Positions 321-63,868 of a DNA stretch of 64,000 nucleotides are shown here, one piece after another. The first letter of the stretch is position 1; each line of letters opens with the position of its first letter. This DNA comes from an uncultured Chloroflexia bacterium (GTDB lineage: Bacteria > Chloroflexota > Limnocylindria > Limnocylindrales > CSP1-4). The notes beneath the pieces are model-generated. The model was not told where the DNA came from. It made no database searches and was given only the letters and a program-made list of their open reading frames with translations. The position numbers were made by a program, and so were the translations under genes. Location of the stretch: contig CAVZHW010000007.1 of the NCBI GenBank assembly GCA_963775225.1, forward strand, positions 135,105 to 199,104, given 5' to 3'.

Positions 321-701
321 TCAGCCTTTCGGTTGGACCACCGCGAGGACGTTGCCGCTCGGGTCGATGAACCACGCTGCCCACGAGTGGCCCATGTCGG
401 CGATGCCGTCGATGGTCACCGGGTCGGGCGCTGCGTACTCCTCGATGCGCACGCCACGCTCGCGCAGTTCCGCGACCGCGGCGTGGATGTCGGGCACTTT
501 CCAGGCCATCTGGGTCTGCGTGTCGCTGGTGCCGACCGAGCTGAGCGTGACGGCCAACCGGGTGTCGGCGGAGCGAAAGACGATGCGGTCATCCGGATCC
601 TCACGCAGGATGTCCAGCCCGAGCACGTCGTGATAGAAGGCCCTGCTCGCCGTAAGGTCCCTGGATAGCAGGATCGGGAAGACCTGGTGCTCGCCGAGCA
701 T
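321..701 (-). CDS. VOC family (glyoxalase/bleomycin-resistance/dioxygenase fold) protein
   Basis: ORF 321-794 trimmed to ATG 701 ([16 protein letters not shown]...). FYHDVLGL near the N-terminus and AAWFIDPSGNVLAVVQ at the C-terminus are typical of paired beta-alpha-beta-beta-beta VOC modules. Confidence 0.75.
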   Translation of the reverse strand: MLGEHQVFPILLSRDLTASRAFYHDVLGLDILREDPDDRIVFRSADTRLAVTLSSVGTSDTQTQMAWKVPDIHAAVAELRERGVRIEEYAAPDPVTIDGIADMGHSWAAWFIDPSGNVLAVVQPKG

Positions 702-1914
702 GTCGCACCTCTGTGCTTTGGCGCGGACTGCGTCGCCGATCGACTCCGATGCCGGCGAGGGACTGTCGCACAACGGGTACCCATACCAGCGCACCGGCTG
801 CCTGCGCGGCGATGACGATGAGCAAGAGTATGCCCGGGACCGCGGTAACCAGCGCGGGATAAGTCCAATCGAGCAATCCGTTGGGCAGGCTCGCGAGCGC
901 GGTCGACACGACGCCGTCGATGCCGCTCACCAGGTCCTGGCCGCCCCCGCCGCCGGCGTCGCTCGGTGGCATGCCGATCGTGAGCGGCGCGTAAGTGGGC
1001 GATGGCGATGTGGGGCCGGGCGCCGCGGAACCGGACGCAGGGTTCCCGGAGGACGTATCGACCGGCGGCGAAGTGCGCGGAGCCGGCGACACCGGTGCAC
1101 TCGGAGGTACCGATGCCGTAACGGCTGGCGTGGGACTCGTCGATGCAGGTGGCGCGGTGGGTACAGGCGGTGAAGGGGAAGGCGGGCTCGCTGAGGCGGT
1201 CGGCGCGTAGAGCGGGCCGTCGGTGTCGCCGTTGGGGTCGAGCTGGCCGTGGGTCGTGGGGTGGGCGTTGGCGTTCGGGTGGGCGTGGGGGTGGGCGTGG
1301 GGGTGGGCGTTCGGGTGGGCGTTGGCCTCGGTGTCGAGGTCGGCGTCACAGTTGGGGTCGGCGTCGGTATCAGAGACGGCAGGACGACAAACGCAAGCGT
1401 GCCGGACGAGCCGCCATTCCCTGCACGTCTTTGTCGTCGGCGCGCCCGGATGGTGGTAGGCGCCGACCGACCAGACCATCGCTCCGACAACATTCGCCAC
1501 TCCGCGGATCTGAAAAACGGCCTCGTCGATGGGTGGAGTGCTGCCCACTAGTGGGTACTTTTCCTGCGGCTCCTTGAACGTCACCACGCTGCCGCCCGAC
1601 CAGATCACCTGCCACGCGTCGTAGGCCGCTCCCGACGTCTGTCCACGCACGGAGACGATTGAGGCGGACACGATGTCGAAGGTCGTTTCGATCTGGAACT
1701 GGACACACGTTATCTCTGAGCCCGCGCCGCTGTCGCCGATGTTGGTCACGGTGATCGCGATCGACGTCGTGCCACCGGCGACGAGGTCGATGGGGTTGGC
1801 GAAAACTGTGAAGGCACGTGCGGCGAGCACGGGTGAAACGAGCAGAAACAGGATGAATGTGGCGGAGCCGAGTGCAGCGAGACGCCCGGTCATGTGGCGA
1901 GACGGGGAACCCAA
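601..1914 (-). CDS. Membrane-anchored surface protein with a His-Pro repeat and a Pro/Ser/Thr-rich linker
   Basis: Signal peptide [23 protein letters not shown] and a ~170-aa globular N-domain. Then (HPxA)n and a PST-rich low-complexity region, a C-terminal TM helix [19 protein letters not shown] and a basic tail. Start is ATG 1914 or 1893. The 3' end overlaps the VOC gene by ~100 nt in another frame. Confidence 0.6.
1255..1326. repeat. Tandem 12-nt repeat (GTGGGCGTGGGG-like, ~5.5 units) inside the surface-protein gene
   Basis: Units are readable at 1261, 1279, 1291, 1303 and 1315. On the minus strand they encode [20 protein letters not shown]. Confidence 0.85.
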
Positions 1915-3804
1915 AGTGTGTTCACCGGAACGTCGGCGTTCGGGTCGGGCGCATCCGGAGCAGTCTCGAGCGCGTGGATGAACACGGTCACCAGACGTTC
2001 ATCGAGCTGAGTTCCCGCGGCATCGCCGAGGCGAGTCACCGCCTCGCGAACGTCGAGCGCCTTGCGATACGGTCGTGTAGTGGTCATGGCCGAGAACGCG
2101 TCGGCCACGGCAAGGATGCGCGCCACGAGCGGGATGTCCTTGCCGGCGAGCCCGGCAAGGTAACCGCGGCCGTCCCAGCGTTCGTGGTGGTTGCGGATGC
2201 CCGCCCGCACCACGGCGATGTCGGGCAGTTCGCGGACGATCAGGTCGCCCAGTGCGACGTGCTGCTTTACCACCTCTGTCTCGTCGCGCGTCAGCCGTCC
2301 GGGCTTGCGTAGGACCTGATCCGGAATGCCGATCTTACCGATGTCATGCAGCAGGCCGGCGATGTGCAGCGTCCTCAGCTTGTCTGCGTCAAGCCCGACC
2401 TGTTGGCCCAGGAAGACCGCGTAGCGGGCAACGTCCTGCGAGTGGCGCCTCGTGTAGTGATCCTTGGTGTCGACGGCGAACACGAGACCCTGCAGGACAT
2501 CGAACCTGGAGTCAACGGCCCGCGACTCGCTCACGTCGTTGCCGGCGACGCGCACAACGTCACCGCCACTCGCCCTGGCCTCCGCGAGCGTCTGCGCGGC
2601 GAGCGACAGCAGCGCCGTTACCGAGGTGGCGTGTTGCGGGTAGGGCAGATGCGCGCACTGACGGTGATGGGCAGCGCCTCGGTCGACTCGAACCTGATGC
2701 TGGTGCCGGCCAGGCGTGCGCGGATGCGTTCAACGATCGCGGCCAGATCGGCCGGGGAGTCGGGCGGCCTGATGATCAGGAATTCGTCGGGGCCGTAGCG
2801 GCCCACGACCATCTCCGGTGGAAGTTCCGCCGCCGCCTACGGGCCACGGCCAGAAGAACCTCGTCGCCGGCGCGGTGGGTGTACGTGTCGTTGACCAGAC
2901 CGGAAGTTGTCGATGTCGATGAGCGCAACGTCCAGCGTGGCCCCCATCTCGAGGGCATGCTCGATCTCCTGCGCGAGATGGCCGACCACAGCGCCGTGAC
3001 TGAGCGTCGCGGTCAGCGAGTCGCGGTGGCTGGCTTCGATCAGGGCGGCGGTCTGCCGCGAGATGCGCGCCTGTGCGGCACCGGAAGATGAAGAAAAGCA
3101 TCACCGCGACGATCAGGGCCGCGGTCAGGATGACCAGCACCACGCTTCCGCGCAAGCCGTCCAGTGATTGCAGGATGGGTTGTGCGTCTCGCCAGACACC
3201 GACAACTAGGGCGACGCGCCCGTCGAGGCTCAGCGGGAGGTACTCACGCAGCACGGTGGTGGCGGAAATCGAGCCCGGGCCGGCGTCGGCCTGATCCGCG
3301 CCGGCCATGTCGACGACGACGGTTCCTGGTCAACTGCCGCCCGGAACTGTTCGTTCGGGGGGACGATGGCGCCGGCCGCAGCCGGATCCGTGGCGGCGAT
3401 GATCGCGCCGTCAGGAGTGCGTAGCTCGACGCGCAGGATGCCACCCTTGCTCGTGAGCGTCGCCATCAACGAGTCGAGATTGGCCTGCTCTGGAGAGCCT
3501 GGGCGGGGTCGTCGACCAGCGCCGGGTCGACGCCCTGCTGGACGAAGCCGCGGATGGTGGCCAGGTCGCTAGCGATGATGGCGTTGAACGCCGTCTGTGA
3601 CGAGTAGACCGAGACCATCAGCGCCTGCGCGGTCGCTGTCACGCCGATGATGACAAGGAAGACGCCGAAGACGACCAGCAACAGCACCGGCCGCGGCGGT
3701 CGTGTCCGCGCGCCGAACGAGTCCACTACGAGTTCATCTCCCGCACGCTTCGTTACCCCCCTGCGCGGGAGGCTAGGTGCGCCTACGCGCTCGCCCCAGT
3801 CCAC
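1890..3804 (-). pseudogene. Eroded membrane sensor with GGDEF and HD-GYP domains (at least 6 frame changes)
   Basis: One gene can be followed across these ORF pieces. 3466-3804 holds a TM helix. 3230-3469 and 2730-3308 hold the second TM, VLVILTAALIVAVMLFFIF. An unlisted frame reads AAQARISRQTAALIEASHRDSLTATLSHGAV...IDIDNFR. 2776-2958 reads VNDTYTHRAGDEVLLAVA and 2618-2812 reads GRYGPDEFLII. 1890-2555 is an intact HD-GYP part (HDIGKIGIP, HHERWDGRGY). Frames run 0>1>2>1>0>1>2. Confidence 0.7.
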
Positions 3805-3854
3805 AAAAGTACCGGCCAGCCCACGTCACCGACCTCGCGACGGGCTGCCCTCGA

Positions 3855-4109
3855 TCAGGCCGACTGGTCAGGCGCTCCCAGCCAGGCGGCGATCTGCCCG
3901 ACGCTCGGAATCCGGCCGACACTGACGATCTTGCCGTCGATCACCAGTCCGGGCGTCGAGAGCACGCCGCGGCCGGCGATCGCGGCCATGTCGGTAACGT
4001 GATCGAGCTGCGCCTCCAGGCCGGCGTCGGCCAGGGCCCGGCGAACGTTTCGCTCGACCGCCTGGCAGTTTGGGCAGCCCGAGCCCAGAACCTCGATGAA
4101 GTGCGTCAC
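3855..4109 (-). CDS. Thioredoxin-fold protein (redox-active disulfide protein 2 / glutaredoxin-like)
   Basis: GTG 4109 is preceded by AGGAG. The 84-aa product VTHFIEVLGSGCPNCQ... has a CxxC motif near the N-terminus and the usual ~80-aa size. It lies downstream of the permease in the same operon. Confidence 0.75.
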   Translation of the reverse strand: MTHFIEVLGSGCPNCQAVERNVRRALADAGLEAQLDHVTDMAAIAGRGVLSTPGLVIDGKIVSVGRIPSVGQIAAWLGAPDQSA

Positions 4110-52024: not shown

Positions 52025-52053
52025 TTGACCCCCTCTATTGTGGGCACTACTGT
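52025..52053 (+). promoter_or_regulatory. Sigma-70-type promoter of tacAT
   Basis: TTGACC (52025-52030), 17 nt, TACTGT (52048-52053). It is followed by GTAC-rich palindromes (GTACGTAC, CCGTACGG) and an AAGGGA RBS before ATG 52086. Confidence 0.45.
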
Positions 52054-52085
52054 ACGTACGATATCCGTACGGTAAGGGACATCCG

Positions 52086-52376
52086 ATGACGGTCGCACGA
52101 TCAGCGACAAGAAAGGACGACAGGCTGGAGCTACGCCTCCGGCCGACCGAGCGCGCCCTGCTCGACGAGGCCGCGCACGCAAGCGCCATGACGACGAGCG
52201 CCTTCGTTCTTACGCACGCCACGGCTGCGGCTCAGGAAGTGCTCGCCGATCGCACGACCTTCGTCCTGCCGGCGGAGCGGTGGGATGCCTTCGTAGAACT
52301 CCTGGAGCGCGAGCCGCGACCGATGCCGGGTCTCGCCGCCTTCCTCGCCCGTCCGAGCGTTCTCGAACAGGAGTGA
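52086..52376 (+). CDS. tacA: DUF1778/TacA-type antitoxin
   Basis: ORF 52038-52376 trimmed to ATG 52086. RLELRLRPTERALLDEAAHASAMTTSAFVLTHA is the RHH-like DUF1778 pattern. Confidence 0.8.
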   Translation: MTVARSATRKDDRLELRLRPTERALLDEAAHASAMTTSAFVLTHATAAAQEVLADRTTFVLPAERWDAFVELLEREPRPMPGLAAFLARPSVLEQE

Positions 52377-52942
52377 GCCGCTACGGCCGGATAGAGCCGT
52401 TGGCACGCGACCATCACCTGGACGGCTTCGACTGCGGGTCTGAAGCGCAAACCACCTGGCTCCGACGCCACGCTCTTCAGGCGCACCAATCAGACACCGC
52501 CAAGGTCTACGTCGTATGCCGCGGTGGCTCTCGCGATGTCGTGGGCTACTACGCGCTCGCTGCCGGATCTGTCCTCCACGAGGACGTGCCGGACCGAGTC
52601 AAACGAGGTGCCGGGCGCTATCCCATACCAGTGGTCATTCTCACGCGCCTCGGCGTGGACGAGCGCGAGCAGCGACAGGGACTCGGTTCCGCTCTGGTCA
52701 AGGACGCGTTCCTCCAGACGGCATCGATAGCAGAGAAGATCGCCGTCCGCGCACTAGTTATCCATGCCGAGACGGCGGAGGCCGTCCAGTTCTACCGTCG
52801 GATCGATCCCGGCTTTGACGTGTCGCCGACCGACCCGCTGCACGTCCTGCTCCTGCTGAAGGATCTCCGGCTCGCCATTCAGGACGGTGCCTCCACCGAG
52901 GCCACCAAAGGTCCCGATCACGCTCTACGGGTCAGCCTCTGA
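52373..52942 (+). CDS. tacT: GNAT-family acetyltransferase toxin (TacT-like)
   Basis: GTG 52373 overlaps the tacA stop (GTGA). LDGFDCGSEAQTTWLRRHA, YYALAAGSV and LTRLGVDEREQRQGLGSALV are typical of TA-associated GNATs. Confidence 0.8.
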   Translation: MSRYGRIEPLARDHHLDGFDCGSEAQTTWLRRHALQAHQSDTAKVYVVCRGGSRDVVGYYALAAGSVLHEDVPDRVKRGAGRYPIPVVILTRLGVDEREQRQGLGSALVKDAFLQTASIAEKIAVRALVIHAETAEAVQFYRRIDPGFDVSPTDPLHVLLLLKDLRLAIQDGASTEATKGPDHALRVSL

Positions 52943-52944
52943 CA

Positions 52945-53111
52945 TCATTCGAGGAGCTCCCGCAGTTCGTCCCGGTCGATGCCCGTGACCCGAAGGATGC
53001 CCATCAGCGTGCCGTGTGATGGCTGCCGCTGACGCGATCAACGCGCCAGCCCTGGCGCTCCAGCGCCCGGATCAGTTGTCCCGGTTTGACGGCGGGCAGC
53101 CGTTCACTCAC
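52945..53111 (-). pseudogene. hicA: hicA toxin relic (internal deletion plus frameshift)
   Basis: GTG 53111 overlaps the hicB stop. VSERLPAVKPGQLIRALERQGWRVDRVSGSHH then runs into a stop at 53004. The C-terminal piece GTLMGILRVTGIDRDELRELLE is in another frame. The ~20-aa central strand region of HicA is missing. Confidence 0.6.
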
Positions 53112-53329
53112 TCCAGCCGGACGGCTATGCGTTCACGCAGGACCTGTTCAACAGGCCAGCCCTTCTCGCGGTGGACAGACAGGTACAGCTCGATGGCGTC
53201 GCGCGCCATGTCGAGCGCTTCCTCCCGAGTTCCCCCCTCCGTGATCACACCAGGGAGCTCAGGCACGGTGACGGTGAAGCCACCCTCGGCCTGCGGAACG
53301 AGCACGACCTCGTATTCCATCTCTTCCAT
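53108..53329 (-). CDS. hicB: HicB family antitoxin (UPF0150 fold)
   Basis: MEYEVVLVPQAEGGFTVTVPELPGVITEGGTREEALDMARDAIELYL. The start is ambiguous: TTG 53350, ATG 53329 or ATG 53320. Confidence 0.75.
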   Translation of the reverse strand: MEEMEYEVVLVPQAEGGFTVTVPELPGVITEGGTREEALDMARDAIELYLSVHREKGWPVEQVLRERIAVRLE

Positions 53330-53420
53330 CCCATGCAGCGTAACCCACAATCGGCGACCTTTGACGCGGTCGCCGCGCGAGCCTGCGCCATCATCCCACC
53401 CGCCACTTATCAGGCGCTTA

Positions 53421-53693
53421 TCAACCCCTGAAGACCGTGTCGGCGTGCCACTCGAGGTATTCGCGCGAGGGTGGCGGGTTGCCGGCGGCGGGTCGTCGGA
53501 TCTCGCGGCCGGCGAGGGCGTAGTAGTCGCGCCCGTTCTCGAACTCCGCGCGGATCGAGCGGCTGACGAGCAGTCGCAGGTCGGGCGAGACCGACACGTA
53601 GCCCTGGTCGAACAGGGTGTGCAGGTCCGACCGAAGCAGGAGGCCGTTGTCGGCCGCGTGCGGGCCCATCTGGCTCTACGGCTTGACGTGCAC
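53421..53693 (-). pseudogene. HNH endonuclease relic (C-terminal part, in-frame TAG, N-terminus missing)
   Basis: HVKP-TAG(53676-53678)-SQMGPHAADNGLLLRSDLHTLFDQGYVSV... matches the HNH core and tail. Upstream sequence is only antisense to the res gene region and has no HNH N-terminal part. Confidence 0.6.
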
Positions 53694-53786
53694 CTCCCTC
53701 GTCCTGCTCGAGTTGTTCTCCCGTGTCTTCCTGCGATAGCCTAGGCGGGCCGGGCAGGCAGCAAGAGGGGAGAGGGGCACAGTCGG

Positions 53787-56765
53787 TTGGCGCAGGGCGC
53801 ACCCACAGCCACGATCGACAACCCGGTCATCAACTCGCCGTTCGTCGAGCCACAGCGCCACTTCGTCATGGCCGACGGCCAACCCACCGGCGAGATCGCC
53901 GATCGTCGTCGACCATCTGAGTTCTTCGTTCCCGTCCCCCCGCCCAGGAAGAAGTCGGCTGCGCAGCTGACGCTGGACCAGTTCGGCATCACCAAGCAGC
54001 AACCGAACGAGATCGTCAACGAGATCCGTCAGTCGGTCGCGCGCTGGCGCCAGCAGGGATATCCGCACGCCACAACGGTCTCCCGCGACCTGCTGGCGTA
54101 CTGGCAGAGCGATGACCGGCAGCGAAAGCTCTTCTTCTGCCAGATCGAGGCCGCCGAGACGGCCATCTACCTGACCGAAGCGGCCGAGCGACTCGGCGAC
54201 ACCAGTGCGCCCAACCAGATCGCCCTCAACAACGCCCACTACAACGGCGGCCTGCCGCGCCTGGCGTTCAAGATGGCCACCGGCTCGGGCAAGACAGTGG
54301 TGATGGCGATGCTCATCGCGTGGCAGACGCTCAACAAGCAGGCCAACCCGCAGGATCGGCGCTTTTCCGACAAGTTCCTGGTCGTCACGCCGGGCATCAC
54401 CATCCGCGACCGGCTCCGTGTGTTGCTGCCTAACGACCCGCAGAACTACTACCAGGTGATGGACCTGGTCAGCGCCGAGCAGATCGACCGCCTGCAGTCG
54501 GCCACCGTCGTCATCGCTAATTACCACGGCTTCATTCGGCGCGAGACGATCCAGGCGGCGAGCCTGGACAAGAGGATCCTCTCGGCGGGGAGGGACGACG
54601 ACGCGTTCAAGGAAACGCCCGCGGAGACGGTCCGTCGCGTATGCCGCGACTTCGGCAGCTCAAAAAACATCGTGGTCATCAATGACGAGGCGCACCACTG
54701 CTACCAGCCGGCGCCGAAGGACGAGGCACAGCAAGAAGTCCTCAGCGCGGATGACCGCCAGCTGGCCAAGCAGGACCAGGAGGAAGCGCGCGTCTGGCTG
54801 AGCGGTTTGCAGGCAGTCGGCGAGAAGCTCGGCATTCGCTCCGTCTTCGACCTCTCCGCGACGCCGTTCTTCCTCAAGGGCTCCGGCTACCAGGAAGGGA
54901 CTCTCTTTCCCTGGGTCGTGAGCGACTTCGGGCTGATGGACGCCATCGAGAGCGGCATCGTCAAGATCCCGCGCGTGCCGGTGAGCGACGACTCGATGAC
55001 GGGCACGGGGCCTATGTACCGCGACCTGTGGCTGCGCGTGCGCGACGCACTGCCGCGCAAGGGCATCAAGGACACGCCGATCGACGGCCAGCCAAACATC
55101 CCCAAGGAGCTCGAGGGCGCGCTGCGCACGCTGTACGCCGACTACGAGCGGGACTTCGATGCCTGGGCGGAAGCCGGCATCGGCACGCCGCCGGTATTCA
55201 TCGTGGTCTGCTCCAACACGGCGACCTCGAAGCTGGTCTTTGACTGGATCGCCGGCTGGGACAAGGAGGGCATCGCGGTCCCCGGCAACCTGCCGCTGTT
55301 CTCGAATGAGCAGGACGGCCGGGTGCGCGAGCGGCCGAACACGATCCTGGTCGACTCGGCCCAACTCGACAAGGACGAGTCGCTCGATCCGGCATTCCGC
55401 AAGGCGGCGGCGACCGAGATCGAGACCTTCAAGCGCGAGTACGTCACGCGCTTCCCCGGACGCAGCGCGGAGGACATCACGCCCGAAGACATCATGCGCG
55501 AGGTCATGAACACGGTCGGCAAGCCGGACAAGCTGGGCGAGGCCATTCGCTGCGTCGTATCGGTGTCGATGCTGACCGAGGGCTGGGATGCCAACACGGT
55601 CACGCACATCCTGGGCATCCGCGCCTTCGGCACGCAGCTGCTGTGCGAGCAGGTCGTGGGCCGGGCGTTGCGGCGGGCCAGCTACGACGCCGACGAAAAC
55701 GGCATGTTCGATGCGCAGTACGCGGAGGTGTACGGCGTGCCGTTCAGCTTCCTTTCTGTGGCGGGGAAGGGGAGGGTCAAGCAGGCCAGGCCGGTGATGG
55801 TCGTCCGCGCGCTGCCCGCGCGGGAGAACCTGCGCATCGAGTTCCCGCGGGTGACCGGATACCGCTTCGACATGCCCACCGAGCACCTGCAGGCGCGCTT
55901 CGACACGTCATCGAACCTCGAACTCTCGACGCGCGACGTGGCCCTGCATACCGAGGTGGACCCGATCGTTGGCGAGCGCGAACTGCATACGCTTGACGAC
56001 CTGCGCAACGTGCGCATGCAGACGGTCGAGTTCACGATCGCCAAGCGCACGCTCGACAACCACTTCCGTGATGGTGACGGCGGCGAGCGGCCGTGGCTCT
56101 TCCCGCAGCTCGTCCGGATCACGCACGACTGGATCCGCGACTGCGTGCACCTCAAGGACAACGCCTTCCCGCAGATGCTGCTGTTCGTCGAGTACAGCCA
56201 CGCGGCGGCAGACCGGATCAACCAGGCGATCGTGTCGGGCACCAGCGGCGAGAAGCGGCTGACGGCCATCCTGCGCCCGTACGAGCCCATCGGCTCGACC
56301 GACTACGTCTACTTCGAGACGACCAAGACCTGCTTCGACACGACCAAGAGCCACATCAACCGCGTCGTCCAGGACTCGGGCTGGGAGTCAAAGCTGGCCG
56401 AGGTGCTCGAGTCGATGCCCGAGGTCGTGGCCTACACCAAGAACCAGGGGCTCAACTTCAAGATCCCCTACACCTACGAGGGGAGGGCGGCCAACTACGT
56501 GCCCGACTTCCTGATCCGCCTGCGCGATGGCGCCTCGACCGGCGACGACGACCTGCTGACCCTCGTGCTCGAGGTGACCGGCGAGGCCAAGAAGGAGAAG
56601 CAGGCCAAGGTAGCAACTGCCCTGAATCTGTGGATCCCGGCCGTCAACAACTGGGGCGGCGCCGGCCGCTGGAAATTTCTTGAGGTGACCGATCCTTGGG
56701 ATGCTGAGAACCTGATCCGCAAGAAGTTCCTCTCGACGAAGTTGACAACTACGCAAAGTGCGTAG
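53787..56765 (+). CDS. res: Type III restriction-like Res subunit (SF2 helicase with C-terminal PD-(D/E)xK nuclease motif)
   Basis: 992 aa, TTG start after a GGGGAGAGGGG stretch. Walker A MATGSGKTVVMAM, motif II VVINDEAHHC, motif VI QVVGRALRR. C-terminal YVPDFLIRL...LVLEVTGEAKKEK is PD...ExK-like. Confidence 0.85.
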   Translation: MAQGAPTATIDNPVINSPFVEPQRHFVMADGQPTGEIADRRRPSEFFVPVPPPRKKSAAQLTLDQFGITKQQPNEIVNEIRQSVARWRQQGYPHATTVSRDLLAYWQSDDRQRKLFFCQIEAAETAIYLTEAAERLGDTSAPNQIALNNAHYNGGLPRLAFKMATGSGKTVVMAMLIAWQTLNKQANPQDRRFSDKFLVVTPGITIRDRLRVLLPNDPQNYYQVMDLVSAEQIDRLQSATVVIANYHGFIRRETIQAASLDKRILSAGRDDDAFKETPAETVRRVCRDFGSSKNIVVINDEAHHCYQPAPKDEAQQEVLSADDRQLAKQDQEEARVWLSGLQAVGEKLGIRSVFDLSATPFFLKGSGYQEGTLFPWVVSDFGLMDAIESGIVKIPRVPVSDDSMTGTGPMYRDLWLRVRDALPRKGIKDTPIDGQPNIPKELEGALRTLYADYERDFDAWAEAGIGTPPVFIVVCSNTATSKLVFDWIAGWDKEGIAVPGNLPLFSNEQDGRVRERPNTILVDSAQLDKDESLDPAFRKAAATEIETFKREYVTRFPGRSAEDITPEDIMREVMNTVGKPDKLGEAIRCVVSVSMLTEGWDANTVTHILGIRAFGTQLLCEQVVGRALRRASYDADENGMFDAQYAEVYGVPFSFLSVAGKGRVKQARPVMVVRALPARENLRIEFPRVTGYRFDMPTEHLQARFDTSSNLELSTRDVALHTEVDPIVGERELHTLDDLRNVRMQTVEFTIAKRTLDNHFRDGDGGERPWLFPQLVRITHDWIRDCVHLKDNAFPQMLLFVEYSHAAADRINQAIVSGTSGEKRLTAILRPYEPIGSTDYVYFETTKTCFDTTKSHINRVVQDSGWESKLAEVLESMPEVVAYTKNQGLNFKIPYTYEGRAANYVPDFLIRLRDGASTGDDDLLTLVLEVTGEAKKEKQAKVATALNLWIPAVNNWGGAGRWKFLEVTDPWDAENLIRKKFLSTKLTTTQSA

Positions 56766-57410
56766 ATGCTTCCCAGTATGGCCTCAGTTCTTACACCCAC
56801 GGCCGCCAGCGCCCTAATCGTGATCGATGAGCTCGACTCAGCCTCCCTGACCGACATCGCTCGCCTGGGCGGTAAGGCCGTGTCCACTGTCCAACGCGCC
56901 CTGAGCACGCTGACCGCGTCGAATGTTTTGACTCGAGAGTGGAACCGCGGCCCGTACACATTTTCGCCGGGAGTGCCACGGTCGGCGCTGCGAGAGCTGG
57001 CCAACTGGACTCTGGGGCCCAAGGAGAGGGCGCGACTTAAGGGCGCGCTGCAGATGTCGAATGGGGCTGAGGCTTCCGGTGCGCCCAAGACCATTACCAA
57101 TCCGCGTATTCGCCGCGCTTGGCCACATGCAATCAGGCGAATTGTTTCTAACTACCACCCCAAGCAGGTCGTGCTCTTCGGCTCCCAATCACGGGGAGAT
57201 GCGAAACCCGACAGCGATGTGGACCTGCTTGTGGTGTTCGATCGCGTGCCGGACCGTCGGGAACGGAGCATCCAGTTGATGGGCCTCCTGAGTGACATGC
57301 CGTTTGCCAAGGACGTTCTCGTTGTCGGCGCTAAGGACACCATCCACCCGCTCCGCGGGAGCGCACTTGCCGATGCGCTCAAGAACGGTGTCGTCGTCTA
57401 TGAGAGATGA
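56766..57410 (+). CDS. Winged-HTH plus minimal nucleotidyltransferase (MNT) protein
   Basis: ATG directly abuts the res stop (TAGATG). N-terminal wHTH (LTDIARLGGKAVSTVQRALSTLTASNVLTRE). C-terminal MNT motif LFGSQSRGDAKPDSDVDLLVV. Confidence 0.8.
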   Translation: MLPSMASVLTPTAASALIVIDELDSASLTDIARLGGKAVSTVQRALSTLTASNVLTREWNRGPYTFSPGVPRSALRELANWTLGPKERARLKGALQMSNGAEASGAPKTITNPRIRRAWPHAIRRIVSNYHPKQVVLFGSQSRGDAKPDSDVDLLVVFDRVPDRRERSIQLMGLLSDMPFAKDVLVVGAKDTIHPLRGSALADALKNGVVVYER

Positions 57411-57822
57411 AGACAGGGCAGACGCTTTGACGTGGCTCTCGTACGCGTTCGGCGATCTGGCCGAGGCACGGTCGCAACCCGGTCGACCTAGCAGGCCGCG
57501 CATCGTGGCATTCCACGCTCAGCAAGCGGCGGAGAAGGCGCTCAAAGCAGCCTTGGTTCTCTCGGATGTCGATCCACCGCGGACTCACGAGTTGGAACAG
57601 TTGCGAGCGCTGCTGCCGATGGACTGGCGCGTACGGCTCAACCCTCGAGACCTTCGACGGCTGTCGCGCCACGGAGTGGATGCGCGATATCCAGATGACC
57701 TGGAGCACGTGCCAACCCTCGCGGCGGCAACGGCGGTTCGCCAGGCAATCGCGGTTGTTCGACTGGTTCGTGAGGACTTCGAGCGCCGTGGCGTACGGAC
57801 AGAAGGGCTGACCCCGCAGTGA
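57400..57822 (+). CDS. HEPN-domain protein (partner of the MNT)
   Basis: ORF 57292-57822 trimmed to ATG 57400 (11-nt overlap with the MNT gene). AFHAQQAAEKALKAALV...PRTHELEQL...ARYPD is the HEPN pattern. Confidence 0.75.
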   Translation: MRDEDRADALTWLSYAFGDLAEARSQPGRPSRPRIVAFHAQQAAEKALKAALVLSDVDPPRTHELEQLRALLPMDWRVRLNPRDLRRLSRHGVDARYPDDLEHVPTLAAATAVRQAIAVVRLVREDFERRGVRTEGLTPQ

Positions 57823-57840: not shown

Positions 57841-60450
57841 GTGGCTGACAAACTTAAGGGCAAGACCACGCCTGTCCGCGCCTACCCGCACCCGTCGGAC
57901 AGCCGCGCCAACATCCCCACCGCCGAGCTCGAGTCGTTCGCCCGCCCCGAAGAGAAGAGGCCCGCGACCGTGCGCTACCCACGCGACCCCACACTCGACC
58001 CGCAACTCGTCTGGAAGGGCAAGGACGAGCAGGACGGCCACGACCTCGAGGTCCCGGCCGTCCCGATCTACATCCAGGAGACGATCGACCCGCTGGCGCT
58101 GATCGAGGAGTTGCGCGCCGAGAGCGAGGGCCGGCGCAGCGAACAGCAGCTCGGCTTCTTCGGCCCGTACAACGACCTGTCCTTCGAGGAGAAGGTCGAC
58201 TTCTACCGCCACGCCGGCAAGTGGACCAACAGGATGATCCTGGGCGACTCGCTGCTGGTCATGACCAGCCTGGCCGAGAAGGAAGGCCTGAAGGGCCAGG
58301 TCCAGACCATCTACGTGGACCCGCCCTACGGCATCAAGTTCGGCTCGAACTGGCAGGTCTCGACGCGCAAGCGCGACGTGCGCGACGGCAAGGACACCGA
58401 CCTGACGCGCCAGCCCGAGCAGGTGCGCGCGTATCGGGACACCTGGGAGCTCGGCATCCACTCGTACCTGAGCTACCTGCGCGATCGGTTGGCCGTGGCT
58501 CGGGAGCTGCTAACCGAGTCAGGCTCGATTTTCGTCCAGATTGGCGACGAGAATGTCCATCTCGTCCGGTCGGTGCTAGATGAGACGTTCGGGGCGACCA
58601 ACTTCGTGTCGCTCATACCGTTTGCTAAGACTGGCGGCCAAGCCGATCTCGCCCTTGGCGCCGTGGTCGACTATGTGATCTGGTACGCGAAGGATCGCGA
58701 CCGCGTCAAGGCTCGCCCGCTTATGCAGACGAAAAGTCGCGGCGGCACCGGTTCAGGTGAGTACTCATGGGTCCACCTACCCGACGGAACGCGCCGGCGT
58801 GCCACGAAGGAGGAGTCTGATAATCCCTCGCTCCTGCCCACAGCCACGCGCTTCTTCATCCCAGACAACTTGACGTCGGCCGATGTAACCGCGACGGGCA
58901 CATTTGACTACTCGGTTGATGGCCAAACGTTCTTTCCGAAGGGCGGGCATTGGAAGACAACCCGAGACGGCCTCGACCGACTTGGCGTCGCGGGCCGGCT
59001 GATAGTTCAGGGCGTCACGCTTCGCTACGTGCGGTACTACGACGACTTCCCCGTAACGCCGATGAGCAATCTCTGGGCAGATACGGCAGCACGCGGCTGG
59101 TTCGAGGACAAGGTATACGTCGTACAGACGACCGGCCGCGTGATTGAGCGCTGTTTGCTGATGACCACTGACCCGGGCGACCTCATAGTCGACCCCACTT
59201 GCGGATCAGGTACGGCTGCGTACGTGGCTGAGGGCTGGGGGAGGCGCTGGATCACGATCGACACCAGTCGCGTCGCGCTCGCTCTCGCCCGCTCGCGCCT
59301 CATGGCCGCCAAGTACCCGTACTACCTGCTCGCCGACTCGGAGCTCGGCGCCCGGAAGGAAGCCGAGGTTGGCGGCATCGCGCCACCGATGGCCTCCGCC
59401 TACGGCAACGACGTCCGGCGCGGCTTCGTCTACGAGCGCGTGCCGCACGTGACCCTCAAGTCGATCGCCCAGAACCCCTACATCCGCGAGGGCATGACGC
59501 GCGAGGAGATCGACGCCTCGATCGCCCGCCACGCCGAGACCGAGACGCTCTTCGACCGACCGTACGAGGACAAGAAGGCCGTTCGCGTGTCGGGCCCGTT
59601 CACCGTCGAGAGCCTGTCACCCCACCGCGTCTTGCGCACCGGGCCGGAGGACGAGGGCGCCGAGCCGCCGCCTTCGGCGCCTGACTCCGGCCAGTTCGTA
59701 ACCAGCATCCTCGACAACCTGCGCCGGGCCGGCGTCCAGAACACCAAGCGCGCGGAGCGCCTCGAGTTCAGCCGACTCGACCCATACCCGGGCGTCTATA
59801 TCCAGGCGACCGGCGAGTACGCCGAGAACAGCCACAGGAAGACGGTCGCGGTGGCGATCGGGCCTGAGTTCGGCACCGTCGGCCCCGAGCTAATCCGCGA
59901 CGCCGCCAAAGAGGCTGTCAAGATCGCCGATCTGCTCGTAGTTTGCGGCTTCGCATTCGACCCGCTGGCAGGGGAGGAGGCCCGCGAGCTCGGTCGCCTG
60001 ACCGTGCTCCAGGCGCGCATCTCGCCGGACCTGCTGGTCGGCGGGCTGAAGAACACCGGCGCCGGCAACCTCTTTCAGGTCTTCGGCGAGCCCGACATCG
60101 ACGTGCGGGAAACTTCCGACAACCAGCTGGTGGTAGAGATCCGGGGGCTGGACGTCTACGACCCGACCACAGGCCAGGTGCGCTCGAACGACATCGACGA
60201 CATCGCCGCCTGGTTCCTCGACACCAACTACGACGGCGACGCCTTCTTCGCCCGCCACGCGTACTTCACGGGCGCCGACGACCCCTACGACCGCCTCCGC
60301 CGCGCCCTGAGGGCTGACATTTCCCATGAGGCTTGGGCGACCGTCAACTCGAACAGCAGCCGAGCCTTTCCGCGCCCCTCCACCGGCAAGATCGCCGTCA
60401 AGGTCATCAACCACTATGGGGATGAAATCATGAAGGTGCTCGCAGCTTGA
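57841..60450 (+). CDS. mod: Beta-class N6-adenine/N4-cytosine DNA methyltransferase (Type III-like Mod)
   Basis: 869 aa. GTG follows GGAG. Motif IV VDPPYGIKF (~58315) precedes motif I DPTCGSGTAAYVAE (~59190), with a ~290-aa variable region between them. This is the beta-class order IV-TRD-I. Confidence 0.85.
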   Translation: MADKLKGKTTPVRAYPHPSDSRANIPTAELESFARPEEKRPATVRYPRDPTLDPQLVWKGKDEQDGHDLEVPAVPIYIQETIDPLALIEELRAESEGRRSEQQLGFFGPYNDLSFEEKVDFYRHAGKWTNRMILGDSLLVMTSLAEKEGLKGQVQTIYVDPPYGIKFGSNWQVSTRKRDVRDGKDTDLTRQPEQVRAYRDTWELGIHSYLSYLRDRLAVARELLTESGSIFVQIGDENVHLVRSVLDETFGATNFVSLIPFAKTGGQADLALGAVVDYVIWYAKDRDRVKARPLMQTKSRGGTGSGEYSWVHLPDGTRRRATKEESDNPSLLPTATRFFIPDNLTSADVTATGTFDYSVDGQTFFPKGGHWKTTRDGLDRLGVAGRLIVQGVTLRYVRYYDDFPVTPMSNLWADTAARGWFEDKVYVVQTTGRVIERCLLMTTDPGDLIVDPTCGSGTAAYVAEGWGRRWITIDTSRVALALARSRLMAAKYPYYLLADSELGARKEAEVGGIAPPMASAYGNDVRRGFVYERVPHVTLKSIAQNPYIREGMTREEIDASIARHAETETLFDRPYEDKKAVRVSGPFTVESLSPHRVLRTGPEDEGAEPPPSAPDSGQFVTSILDNLRRAGVQNTKRAERLEFSRLDPYPGVYIQATGEYAENSHRKTVAVAIGPEFGTVGPELIRDAAKEAVKIADLLVVCGFAFDPLAGEEARELGRLTVLQARISPDLLVGGLKNTGAGNLFQVFGEPDIDVRETSDNQLVVEIRGLDVYDPTTGQVRSNDIDDIAAWFLDTNYDGDAFFARHAYFTGADDPYDRLRRALRADISHEAWATVNSNSSRAFPRPSTGKIAVKVINHYGDEIMKVLAA

Positions 60451-63067
60451 GCGACTCACTGTTCTCCAAGTGGTACTTGGCCGACCTCCATGTTCATACC
60501 GTCGCGGACGCAAACCACCGATACCAAACAAGCAACCTTGACAAGGAGCCGAACGCAGCATTCGCCACTGAGCTCATCGAAGCGTCTTCCTCTGCAGGTG
60601 TGTCCGTCATCGCCGTGACCGATCACAACCGTGTCGACTGGTGGCCCGCTTTGCGAGACGCGGCGAAGAGGCGCGGCATCACCGTCTTTCCAGGGATTGA
60701 GATCAGTGTGAACCGTTGTCATCTCATCGGGATCTGGGAGGCAACTGCCGAGGGCTACGCACTCGCACAACGCTTTGCCAGCGGAATCCACCGTCCGGGA
60801 CAGTCGCCGTACGTTCATGGGAGTCCCCGGCCTGTGGCTAGCGGCAATGTGGAAGAAAACGCACGCAAGATCGTCGACCATGCCGGCCTTGTGCTCGCGC
60901 CGCACTCCACGAATCGTGGGCTCGGCTTCTTTGGCCCCGGTGTCTGCTCGAACTCCGATGAGATCGCACAGTCCGGCCTCATCTCCGCGTTTGATGTCTT
61001 TGGCAATCCGGGCGCCGACGTCTTGCAGAATCCAAGGTCGCAGTTCGGTGATGCGCTGCCGAGATGGATCCTAACCGGGGACACGCGATCGTTCGATGAT
61101 ATTGCACAGCGAGCCATATATCTCAAGCTTGGTGCACGTCCTACGCTCGAGGGCCTCCGGCAGGCGTTCCTGTCTCCAACCACGCGTATTCGCTTCCCCG
61201 AATCGACTCGGAGTGACTGGGGTCGTGTCAAGGGCGTTGCATTCACGAATGACGTCAGGCCGGCCTGGCCGCGATTGAGTCGACTGACTATCAAAGGAGG
61301 CTTTCACGATGGTCTCGAACTCCAGTTCGGCCCAGGCCTGAACGCCCTGATCGGGGGAAAGGGCACAGGCAAGTCAGCTGTCATCGAGATCATTCGTCAC
61401 GTTGTCGGAGCACTGCAACCGAACGAACGGTCTTTACTCGACAATCGTGCCCGGAACTTCCCGCAAATGCCGACGCTGAGATCACATTCATAGACAGCGA
61501 TGGCCAAGAATACTTGGTCCAACGAAGCGGTGGCAGCAGTCCCCCGCAGCTGCTAGTCGCTGGCGTGAAGAGCGAAGTGTACGTCTCACGTCGAGTGACC
61601 TTGAACATCTTTGGCCAGAGGCAACTTGGTGAGCTGGCATCCTCCGGTGCTCTCCGAGAGTTTCTGGCGCGGGGCCTCGCTGACGACTGGACCGCGCAGC
61701 TGGAGACTCAGCGCTTGCTCGTCCGCGACCTAGAGTCGAACGCTGCCGCCCTCGCATCAAAGGAGACTGCTCTCACCGATCTGGAGGACAAGGCCGCCGA
61801 GCGAAGCGACTACGTTGAGCGTATTGAACGCGCTCGCGCTGCCGGCGCTGACAAGGTCATAGCCAAGCTACAAGGCTTGAGTAGGGACAATCAGAAGTAT
61901 CGGCGGGCTCAGCAGTGGCCGGGAACCGCGTCCGATGCACTGCAGAAAGTCGCGGAATTGCTACCGCCGCCCACGCCGCCAAACGATCCTCCCGACATGG
62001 CCGAACTCGGAAGAAGCCTCACGGACGCCGGTGCCGCGATCTCACAGGCCCTCGACGACGCGACTGACGCCGTGGTGAAGTCCTCCGACGCCGTCAAGAC
62101 CGCGCGCGCAGTCTGGCTTGAGCACTACGAGCGACAGAAAGCGGTACTCGAAGGTGAGCTTGCAGCCGTGGGCATATCGAATCCCGCCGATCTCGCTGCA
62201 TGGCAGGGAAGACTTAGTGAGCTAGACGACGAACTGAGTGCTCTACCTACTGCGCGCTCATCCCGCTCGGCGCTCCTTAAGCAAAGGGAAGAGTTGCTGA
62301 CGCGATTGAGGGCCGGTTGGCGCGCGAAATCACGTCTTATCGAACAGGCAGCCGCGCGAGTTGCAACGTTGCTACCGCCTCGCGTAAGGCTCGTCACAGG
62401 CACTTTGCGTGATAGAACTGCATTCCGGACGGCGCTCGAACGTGCGGTTCAGGGCCAAGGAGTCCGCAGTGAGCAACTGGACAAGCTGTCAGTGCTCGAC
62501 CCGTCTACCGTTCTGAAGGCCGCGGAGACAGGGGTCGACGAACTCGTATCCCTCGGCGTAACAGCAAACACTGCCGCCAAGCTGGCGGCCATTTCTCCAA
62601 CAGAGCGCAGATCGATCGAGCTAGCGGAGATCCAAGACGAAGTTACCGTCGAAATGGACCCGTCGCCAGGTGGAACAGGCGAATGGCGGAATATTGGCGA
62701 TGTCTCTCCCGGCCAGCGCGCGACAGCACTCCTAGCGCTTGTCTTGGTCGGAGGCCACGAACCTCTAATCATCGATCAGCCAGAAGACGACCTCGATAAC
62801 CGCTACATATACGAAGAGGTCGTAGGCGTCTTAGGCCGGACCTGCGAGAAACGCCAGGTCATCGTTGCCACCCACAACGCCAACATACCGATCCTTGGCG
62901 ACGCTGAACTGATCGTGGCTCTCGATGCGTCCGCGACCCGTAGCAAAGTCATCGCAATGGGCGGGCTGGAGCTATCCAACGTCGCCGATTCGGCGCGGAC
63001 CATCCTCGAAGGAGGCGAGGAAGCGTTCCTCGCGAGGTCTCAGCGCTACTTGGGCACACGGACCTAG
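60447..63067 (+). CDS. PHP phosphoesterase fused to a Rad50/SMC-like ABC ATPase with a coiled coil, frameshifted
   Basis: TTG 60447 overlaps the mod stop (TTGA). PHP motifs: ADLHVHT, AVTDHN, GIEIS, APHS. Walker A GGKGTGKSA. The frame switch at ~61461-61466 (…NRARNF / ANADAEITFIDSDGQEYLVQR) joins ORF 60447-61493 to ORF 61514-63067. The second ORF has a ~300-aa Ala/Leu/Glu/Arg-rich helical region, then signature SPGQRA, Walker B LIIDQPEDDLD and H-loop ATHNANIP. Confidence 0.8.
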
Positions 63068-63149: not shown

Positions 63150-63557
63150 TCAGCCGGTGACGGAAAAGCCGAGGGCGGTAGCTGCGACCGAGAACTCGCG
63201 ATCATGGGTGGCAACCGTCACGTCGCCAAACTCATCGCGCAGGGCGAGAGCCGTCGCGAGGTGGATTGCGTCGAGCGTTCGCAAAGAGGTCGGGAACGGC
63301 TCGGCAGCTCGCTCGAGCAGCTCAGCGGAGACCGATACCAGCGCGATGCCGGCCACAACGGCGAGCGCTGCATTGCGCAGGCGCGCAGTGGTTTCGTCAT
63401 CCAGCCGCTGACTCAACCTCGTGCGATCGATGACGCGCAAGGACTCGACCCGCAGTAGCTCACTCGATACCGGGTGGTCGCCCTGCCAGCCAGTCAACTG
63501 GTCTGGTTCGCCGAAGAGCATGCGCAGGACGACTGACGAGTCGACGTATGTCGTCAA
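63150..63557 (-). CDS. vapC: PIN-domain toxin VapC
   Basis: MTTYVDSSVVLRML (N-terminal Asp), TLDAIHLATAL, VATHDREF. 4-nt overlap with vapB. Confidence 0.8.
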   Translation of the reverse strand: MTTYVDSSVVLRMLFGEPDQLTGWQGDHPVSSELLRVESLRVIDRTRLSQRLDDETTARLRNAALAVVAGIALVSVSAELLERAAEPFPTSLRTLDAIHLATALALRDEFGDVTVATHDREFSVAATALGFSVTG

Positions 63558-63808
63558 CGCCGGCCTCGCTCCTCCATGAGCAGCTCCAGGGAGCTCACTG
63601 GCAGATTGAGCGGCGGGTAGCTCCTGTTGATCACCTCCGCCAGGGAGCGTGTGGGTTCACGGATGACCAGGCGCGAATGCCGCTCGACTGGTACCAGGCG
63701 CGCGATCGCCCGATCATGATCGGTCACCTCGATGACCTCGCCCTTCTCCACCAAGCGCAGGTTCTTCGAGAGGTTGTTCTTGAGTTCGGCGACTCCGACC
63801 CGTTGCAT
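63554..63808 (-). CDS. vapB: Phd/YefM-type antitoxin of a VapBC module
   Basis: MQRVGVAELKNNLSKNLRLVEKGEVIEVTDHDRAIARLVP. Start set at ATG 63808 because of the promoter geometry. The ORF track starts at 63847. Confidence 0.75.
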   Translation of the reverse strand: MQRVGVAELKNNLSKNLRLVEKGEVIEVTDHDRAIARLVPVERHSRLVIREPTRSLAEVINRSYPPLNLPVSSLELLMEERGRR

Positions 63809-63813
63809 GGCCA

Positions 63814-63843
63814 TATCTAGCCATGACATGACCACAATGTCAA
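63814..63843 (-). promoter_or_regulatory. Consensus-like promoter placed for a leaderless vapB mRNA
   Basis: On the minus strand: TTGACA (63843-63838), 18 nt, TAGATA (63819-63814), 5 nt, ATG 63808. Confidence 0.5.
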
Positions 63844-63868
63844 GCATGGCGCCGGTCTCGAAGGACGC

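Follow-up and report, generated by a model that had tools for sequence, protein, structure and literature searches.

Is a gene whose start codon overlaps the stop codon of a DNA methyltransferase gene a dedicated partner of that methyltransferase, or a protein of a known kind that came to rest beside it? The question is raised by positions 60447–63067 (forward strand) of a 64,000-nucleotide stretch of DNA from an uncultured Chloroflexia bacterium (contig CAVZHW010000007.1, positions 135,105 to 199,104), which we refer to as the window. A preliminary description had read this locus as a PHP phosphoesterase fused to a Rad50/SMC-like ATPase, a single-chain analogue of SbcCD whose coupling to the upstream mod gene suggested that its activity was coordinated with modification status. 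We think it likely that the locus is one gene of the TrlF family of PHP–ABC ATPases, a self-contained and horizontally mobile defence module of the Ppl kind, with a Ppl-like mechanism, which inserted behind mod by chance. The copy as sequenced is split by a one-nucleotide deletion.

Identification of a TrlF-family gene

The locus comprises two open reading frames (ORFs), 60447–61493 (frame 0, 348 amino acids, TTG start) and 61514–63067 (frame 2, 517 amino acids), and frame 2 is open well 5′ of 61514, across the junction between them. If frame 0 is continued into frame 2 from the Pro codon that follows F338, the result is a bridged protein of 873 amino acids, in agreement with the ~870-residue frame, broken once at about 61461–61466, that had been described at the outset. 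The gene and its lesion are laid out as follows.

60447..60450, forward strand: TTGA, shared by the TTG start of the gene and the TGA stop of mod (60448–60450)
60447..61463, forward strand: 5′ part, read in frame 0 and encoding residues 1–339 (PHP domain and start of the ABC head), from the ORF and homolog alignment
61461..61464, forward strand: site of the 1-nucleotide deletion, from frame analysis and comparison with homologs at the protein and DNA levels
61463..63067, forward strand: 3′ part, read in frame 2 and encoding residues 340–873, with the stop (rest of the N-lobe, coiled coil, helical domain, C-lobe)

When searched against NCBIfam, the bridged sequence (not the two separate ORFs as sequenced) matched NF045780, 'TrlF family AAA-like ATPase', with 371.7 bits (E = 1.3e-110), above the cutoff of 350 by a narrow margin. 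The match ran essentially end to end, from residue 7 to 868 of 873 and from profile position 3 to 943 of 944, and the protein shares with the family its length class, its PHP domain and an ABC head that is split by a coiled coil and carries Walker A, Q-loop, signature (SxGQ), DQPEDDLD and HNAN motifs, although the window copy as sequenced does not encode an uninterrupted single polypeptide. Weaker NCBIfam matches were to Spaf_1101 (158 bits, cutoff 475) and Ppl_antiphage (NF042955; 136 bits, cutoff 1000, with residues 744–867 as the best stretch), and the best match in the defence-gene library PADLOC was also Ppl (2.6e-31). As judged from these scores, the protein is a relative of Ppl from a sister family rather than a member of Ppl itself. 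The suggestion in the preliminary description that it be compared with Ppl and TrlF was thus the right lead. Its 'single-chain SbcCD analogue' stands insofar as a PHP domain is indeed fused to a Rad50-like head; it is no discovery, because the protein belongs to the TrlF family and is therefore of a known kind. The single-chain PHP–ABC architecture is not new and belongs to a family that already has a name.

That family is large and widespread. A homolog search found 545 proteins, and nearly all of the best 120 were 814–934 amino acids long, the only shorter ones being P0002 (the 3′ ORF of the window itself) and P0011 (from a contig of 2.7 kb). Family genes occupied at least 569 genome loci in many bacterial phyla and in archaea (in a one-genome-per-species collection) and formed 962 clusters at 50% identity with E ≤ 1e-30. 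Searching plasmids with tblastn gave matches in 1125 records, 811 of them conjugative; among the plasmid matches listed, all fell on family genes, which carry the name 'TrlF family AAA-like ATPase' where they were annotated by the Prokaryotic Genome Annotation Pipeline (PGAP) and are called histidinol-phosphatase or hypothetical protein by other annotators. A P2-like Yersinia phage carries a TrlF member (465 bits) that is flanked by gpA on one side and by the portal gene gpQ on the other, a position that we take to be the defence hotspot of P2 phages. Literature searches with the name 'TrlF' returned only unrelated acronyms (TRLFS spectroscopy and tumour-related liver failure), and neither a sequence profile nor Foldseek found a Ppl- or TrlF-like chain among solved structures in the PDB.

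Within the family, the window protein belongs to a peripheral clade, which scored 317–410 bits against NF045780, compared to 440–645 bits for other TrlF proteins. The clade consists of ~7 full-length clusters (at 50% identity) that are 40–45% identical to the window protein, with identity of at most 33% beyond it, and it occurs in Chloroflexota, Actinomycetota, Rokubacteria, Dormibacterota and other phyla. The window copy differs from other TrlF proteins in being frameshifted, and its clade differs from them in having D-x-R as the last PHP motif.

Domain structure of the bridged protein

The domains and motifs of the bridged protein map to the window as follows.

60447..61271, forward strand: PHP phosphoesterase domain, residues 1–275 (AlphaFold2 model, Foldseek, profile and residue counts)
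60489–60497, forward strand: H15/H17 of the PHP domain
61080–61088, forward strand: D212-T-R214 motif of the PHP domain
61353..61376, forward strand: Walker A (P-loop) GGKGTGKS, residues 303–310
61682..62365, forward strand: antiparallel coiled-coil insertion, residues 413–640 (~230 residues; DSSP on the AlphaFold2 model, and matches to SMC, Rad50 and JetC)
62705..62722, forward strand: ABC signature SPGQRA, residues 754–759
62765..62797, forward strand: Walker B/D-loop LIIDQPEDDLD, residues 774–784
62870..62884, forward strand: H-loop THNAN, residues 809–813 (H810)

The identity of the N-terminal domain was supported by both structure and sequence. An AlphaFold2 model of residues 1–275 had a mean predicted local distance difference test (pLDDT) score of 95.7, and its top 28 Foldseek matches in the PDB, to E of about 6e-3, were all PHP proteins, including the phosphoesterases 3e38 and 3o0f, RNase AM, Cv1693 and the PHP domains of PolC and DnaE. 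A family-wide sequence profile of the domain likewise matched TM0559 (8.5e-12), RNase AM, Cv1693, PolC and YcdX; the Pfam PHP model scored below its gathering threshold (23.8 vs 26.4 bits). All of the PHP motifs named in the preliminary description (HxH, DH, E and H) were present, and eight of the nine metal ligands could be assigned: H15 and H17 (DLHVHT), D21, H60 (next to D59 in TDHN), E85 (GIEIS), H92, H153 (APHS) and D212. At the ninth position, which a profile alignment placed opposite the His of the TM0559 'SDFH' motif, the window protein has R214. The missing His in TGDTRS, already noted before our analysis, is not peculiar to this copy: the Arg was invariant among the clade members (87/87). 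In 70 of these 87, moreover, the first His of HxH is Gln, which in the window protein remains His. The last motif varies elsewhere in TrlF, being D-x-K in an E. coli plasmid copy and at locus L008 and D-x-H in the Halapricum plasmid and Yersinia-phage copies. Compared to stand-alone and polymerase-associated PHP proteins (TM0559, RNase AM/YciV, Cv1693, PolC, DnaE and YcdX), the window protein thus has the same fold and order of motifs (HxH, D, DH, E, H, H, D) and differs in its fusion to an ATPase and in the Arg that replaces the His of DxH. To judge from the residues present, D-x-R and the Q-x-H of most clade members leave real doubt as to how the PHP site would bind metal.

The remainder of the protein was predicted to be an ABC-type head interrupted by a long coiled coil. 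In the model of the full bridged protein, built with 87 homologs (pLDDT 90.7, predicted template modelling score 0.79), both halves of the head and the long helical region that had been described were present, with all motifs intact (Q391 forming the Q-loop) and the helices spanning residues 413–640. The C-terminal 600 residues matched the heads and coiled coils of SMC, MukB, JetC, Rad50 and RecF by Foldseek (best E 9e-12); Pfam matches to this part (AAA_23, SMC_N and AAA_21) were all below threshold. In the Walker B motif, which reads D-Q-P-E, Gln778 (62777–62779) occupies the usual position of the catalytic Glu. This Gln was found in all 87 clade sequences and in 10/10 full-length relatives in an alignment of the wider TrlF family. 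Replacing Glu with Gln at this position is an experimental means of trapping SMC and ABC heads in the ATP-bound state, and the invariant D-Q-P-E would suit nucleotide sensing better than it would a fast-hydrolysing motor.

These features set the protein apart from the repair and defence systems that it most resembles. Like SbcCD and Mre11–Rad50, it combines an ABC head bearing an antiparallel coiled coil with a metal-dependent nuclease domain, yet its nuclease domain is a fused PHP domain (TIM-barrel-like) rather than a separate subunit with a calcineurin fold, its Walker B has Gln for the catalytic Glu, and the apex of its coiled coil is a Pro-rich loop, LLPPPTPPNDPP. No Cys was visible in residues 493–527 around the apex, and the CxxC zinc hook is therefore absent. 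The ORFs in the flanking 10 kb included none noted as SbcD-like, although no search dedicated to SbcD was made. With OLD, Gabija GajA, PARIS AriA and Septu PtuA the protein has in common an AAA_21-type ABC ATPase joined to a nuclease effector, and weak PADLOC and PDB matches to AriA, GajA, PtuA and LmuB were through the ATPase domain only. Unlike in those systems, the effector is PHP rather than TOPRIM or HNH (no TOPRIM match to the window protein was found in Pfam or NCBIfam), and a long coiled coil of the SMC type is inserted in the head. Ppl of E. coli (NF042955), by contrast, has the same plan, with a PHP domain at the N terminus of a single chain that also contains an ABC-type NTPase, and it is the only relative with a reported defence activity and mechanism (PMC11482910, PMC12904381, PMC13434339 ref 51).

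A one-nucleotide deletion splits the gene as sequenced

When aligned with single-chain homologs of ~870 amino acids, the bridged protein had no gap at the junction, where the motif NRxRNF-x-ANADA (N-R-x-R-N-F-x-A-N-A-D/E-A) is kept among homologs. The preliminary description had allowed that the gene might be genuinely split, with parts that never occur fused; they are fused in hundreds of relatives. Because the window reads AACTTCCCG-CAAATGCC where a relative with 52% identity (L082) reads AACTTCCCGGCAAATGCG, we attribute the shift from frame 0 to frame 2 to loss of a single base at 61461–61464, where the window has CCCG and relatives have CCCGG or CCCCG. An intact gene would read CCCGGCAAAT or CCCCGCAAAT at this point, compared to CCCG-CAAAT in the deleted state. 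Past the lesion, frame 0 runs into a premature TAG at 61491–61493, and the first codon at which translation could restart, at 61514, has no Shine–Dalgarno-like sequence and comes ~18 conserved residues (339–356) after the lesion. The halves were otherwise intact, with no second lesion in the gene and with all 96 of the columns that are invariant across the 87 clade members, catalytic motifs included, kept in the window protein. As the break interrupts the N-lobe of the ATPase head, this copy would not function unless the missing base is an artefact of assembly.

The closest homolog of the window protein (P0001, 73% identity) is damaged as well. Its gene carries an out-of-frame lesion of its own near the 3′ end (L081:12380–12560), such that the conserved C terminus ('...VANSARTILEGGEEAFMARSQRY') can be read solely from a different frame; as called, the protein scores 316.5 bits, under the TrlF cutoff of 350.

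With the rest of the gene intact, the missing base would be explained equally by a mutation that is very recent or by an error that arose in the consensus at a short run of C/G. That the organism has an intact 873-residue gene and that the base was lost in assembly is quite possible, although it is not the explanation we prefer: the pristine state of both halves, with every invariant column retained, and the location of the deletion within CCCG(G), a short homopolymer context, are what such an error would produce, whereas the flanking Res and Mod genes, ~6 kb of coding sequence, are free of frameshifts and align at full length to models and homologs, and the independent lesion in P0001 makes decay of the lineage plausible. 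A search of the records for exact protein matches to the C-terminal ORF and to Mod, which might have revealed sister assemblies in which to check the frameshift, found none. The copy as sequenced is therefore either a pseudogene or the product of an assembly error, and we place a real pseudogene somewhat ahead. We give very little credence to a third explanation, in which the split is functional and the two ORFs (348 amino acids with the PHP domain and Walker A, and ~517 amino acids) make a two-chain enzyme or are joined by programmed frameshifting. SMC and Rad50 heads can be reconstituted from N-terminal and C-terminal halves, and a –1 shift would restore the frame, but the break lies within the β-sheet of the N-lobe rather than at the coiled coil, and the loss of ~18 conserved residues before a restart that has no ribosome-binding site makes a working two-chain enzyme unlikely. 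Programmed frameshifting was rejected because the lesion site has no slippery heptamer of the form X XXY YYZ and the junction is in frame in all relatives.

Relationship to the adjacent restriction–modification genes

The gene lies in a small cluster with the following neighbours.

53787..56765, forward strand: Res, a BPTD_3080-family restriction endonuclease with helicase and endonuclease parts (NCBIfam NF046055, 1175.7 bits vs cutoff 800)
56766..57822, forward strand: MNT nucleotidyltransferase (56766–57410; Pfam NTP_transf_2, 2.2e-11) and HEPN (57292–57822; Pfam HEPN, 2.3e-17), between Res and Mod
57841..60450, forward strand: Mod, a type III-like N6/N4 DNA methyltransferase (Pfam N6_N4_Mtase, 3.6e-24; PADLOC MTase_III, 8.7e-279)
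63150–63847, reverse strand: VapC (PIN) and a Phd/YefM-type antitoxin, directly 3′ of the gene

The presence of MNT–HEPN and of VapC with its antitoxin marks the region as a small defence and toxin–antitoxin island. The overlap of start and stop codons in TTGA was as previously described, and because homologs begin at the position equivalent to 60447, the TTG start is credible. Within mod, 8 nucleotides 5′ of this TTG, lies a Shine–Dalgarno-like element, AAGGTG. The composition of the gene differs from that of its neighbours. Its GC content was 0.59–0.61, compared to 0.65–0.66 for Res and Mod and 0.67 for the remaining window, bearing out the lower GC noted earlier, and at third codon positions (GC3) both halves of the gene had 0.65–0.66 compared to 0.90 for Res and 0.86 for Mod, which resemble host genes. 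A GC3 map of the window also showed the gene to be compositionally atypical, and the difference in codon composition points to separate histories of the gene and the restriction–modification (R-M) pair.

We examined this relationship from both sides. From the side of Mod, we collected the 80 metagenome loci with the closest Mod homologs (55–76% identity). The order Res-then-Mod was kept in 66 of the 80, but a TrlF-like gene 3′ of Mod was found in none of the 51 related Res–Mod loci with at least 1.5 kb downstream; one locus had a weak partial ATPase match 2.5 kb away. From the side of TrlF, only about 5 of 80 genome loci had a Mod-like neighbour. Among 11 contexts from the window clade, none had a start overlapping Mod, and no close relative abuts Mod; P0001 lies 3.3 kb 3′ of another Mod–Res pair, with Mrr and toxin–antitoxin genes between. 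Defence or mobile surroundings were found in 7 of the 11 contexts, including an island of C5-methylase, HATPase, Mrr-helicase, Vsr and TIR genes, an integrase-bounded element, RE_XcyI with integrases, AbiE with an integrase, and SNF2–NOV_C with Abi_C. The claim that coupling to Mod reflects coordination with modification status therefore did not survive comparison, given these counts and the difference in GC3. The gene appears to have been inserted directly behind mod, where its sequence context suggests that it is probably co-transcribed and translationally coupled and is nonetheless an independent module; the adjacency looks like a local accident of insertion rather than a conserved partnership. 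The C terminus of Mod is of normal length. The boundaries of the insertion had no tRNAs, terminator-like sites were not above shuffled controls, repeats were short and at chance level only, and no downstream synteny with related Res–Mod loci that would delimit the insertion was found.

The R-M locus itself seems prone to acquire cargo. The gap from Res to Mod was bimodal in 65 related loci from the set L092–L171, at most 132 nucleotides in 24 and 341–3893 nucleotides in 41, which suggests that the Res–Mod slot is a recurrent landing site. A GNAT region 5′ of Res in the window (52053–52870; the GNAT gene spans 52280–52942) was 68% identical in DNA to L093:4317–5131, which at that locus lies between Res and Mod, and in L081 a TacA/GNAT pair lies beside R-M genes. 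GNAT toxin–antitoxin-like cargo may travel with this R-M family. Directly 5′ of Res is a 242-amino-acid ORF (53016–53744, forward strand) with no Pfam match, and a further open frame starts at about 63840.

Neighbours of TrlF genes elsewhere

In 48 of 80 TrlF genome loci, the family gene is accompanied by a gene of ~400–440 amino acids with SLFN_AlbA_2 and HATPase_c_4 domains, which lies immediately 3′ in about 46 (for example, L008:12680–13906, a Hakubella locus, L017:12584–13876 and L064:12507–13835) and kilobases away in two (L036 and L049). Neither PADLOC v2 nor NCBIfam has a model for this gene. The association is a frequent feature observed here and is not a curated criterion for TrlF, but the pair resembles an unrecognised two-gene system. 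The partner was absent from the window, from those clade loci with room for a gene, and from the E. coli plasmid and P2-like phage copies. In a different setting, an archaeal TrlF gene on the Halapricum desulfuricans plasmid pHSR-Est01 (L087, 87118–103646) lies amid DUF1156, DUF499 and SNF2 (MADS-like) genes and DUF262; DUF1156/SNF2 surroundings were also seen in about nine bacterial TrlF loci, five of which have DUF499 too.

Proposed function and alternatives

Ppl is a single-gene system with PHP and ATPase domains that protects E. coli from T7 (PMC11482910). It has been described as a 3′–5′ exonuclease on single-stranded DNA that is inhibited by nucleoside triphosphates (NTPs) bound to both domains and is released by phage-induced NTP depletion together with 3′-OH ends made by phage homing endonucleases (2026 review, PMC12904381); the primary paper on this mechanism is Xu et al., Mol Cell 2026, as cited in PMC13434339 (ref 51). 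By analogy, the most likely function of an intact window protein would be that of a stand-alone, NTP-gated PHP exonuclease. The protein would dimerise through its ATPase heads, and nucleotide at the ATPase and PHP sites would hold the nuclease off. Upon phage infection, as the NTP pool falls and free 3′-OH DNA ends are exposed, the PHP domain would degrade DNA in the 3′-to-5′ direction and halt the infection. The gene would have landed behind the mod of a type III-like R-M system, in an island that now runs Res, MNT–HEPN, Mod, the gene and VapBC.

Several observations weigh against this proposal. The mechanism is borrowed from Ppl, whose model matched the window protein weakly and mostly in the C-terminal ATPase lobe, and no published experiment was found on proteins of the TrlF family proper. 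In its PHP site the protein deviates from the canonical set of nine ligands, with Arg for the last His and with QxH in most of the clade, and nuclease activity is for this reason not guaranteed. Four of the 11 clade contexts are housekeeping or unclear, one of them between metH and recQ, and the 4-nucleotide overlap with mod and the Shine–Dalgarno-like element favour co-expression in this genome.

That last observation, together with the position of P0001 downstream of another Mod–Res pair and the few TrlF loci elsewhere with Mod-like or DUF1156 methyltransferase neighbours, is what might be expected if the protein served the type III R-M system as a dedicated accessory, with its nuclease coordinated with methylation status through coupling to Mod. 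We regard this as very unlikely, and as already largely refuted by the comparative data: the 51 informative Res–Mod loci lack the gene, about 75 of 80 TrlF genome loci lack a Mod-like neighbour, GC3 is 0.66 in the gene compared to 0.86–0.90 in Res and Mod, and relatives are found by themselves, whether on plasmids, in a P2-like phage or with housekeeping genes on either side. A role in housekeeping DNA repair, as an end processor resembling SbcCD or RecN, would account for the structural likeness to Rad50, RecF and SMC heads and for the relative beside recQ, and the PHP domains of PolX and PolC do have exonuclease roles in proofreading or repair (PMC11482910 ref 93). This is nevertheless highly improbable, in view of the patchy and mobile distribution of the family (conjugative plasmids, integrase-flanked islands and a P2-like phage locus), a GC3 that is low relative to the host, a top defence-library match to Ppl, and the disruption of the gene both here and in its nearest relative, which would not be expected of a core repair gene. 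We also consider it unlikely, if somewhat less so, that the window clade is a functionally distinct offshoot of TrlF and Ppl, marked by D-x-R, usually Q-x-H and the lack of a Schlafen-like partner, in which a two-metal or rewired PHP site possibly acts on a different substrate and which, in this genome, may also use DNA ends made by the upstream type III Res, forming a second layer whose translation is tied to Mod. A mobile, Ppl-like defence module that inserted behind mod by chance remains the explanation that we favour.

Significance

For annotation, both ORFs are to be treated as one frameshifted 'TrlF family AAA-like ATPase' pseudogene rather than as a novel Mod-coupled nuclease. TrlF-type PHP–ABC proteins form a large mobile family found near defence genes, and only the sister Ppl has been studied. 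The window copy in itself adds little to this picture, and the peculiarities of its clade are a modest point of interest. The Gln in Walker B, the variation among D-x-H, D-x-K and D-x-R at the last PHP motif, and the Schlafen-like partner present in most loci outside the clade may serve as guides for experiments on the family.

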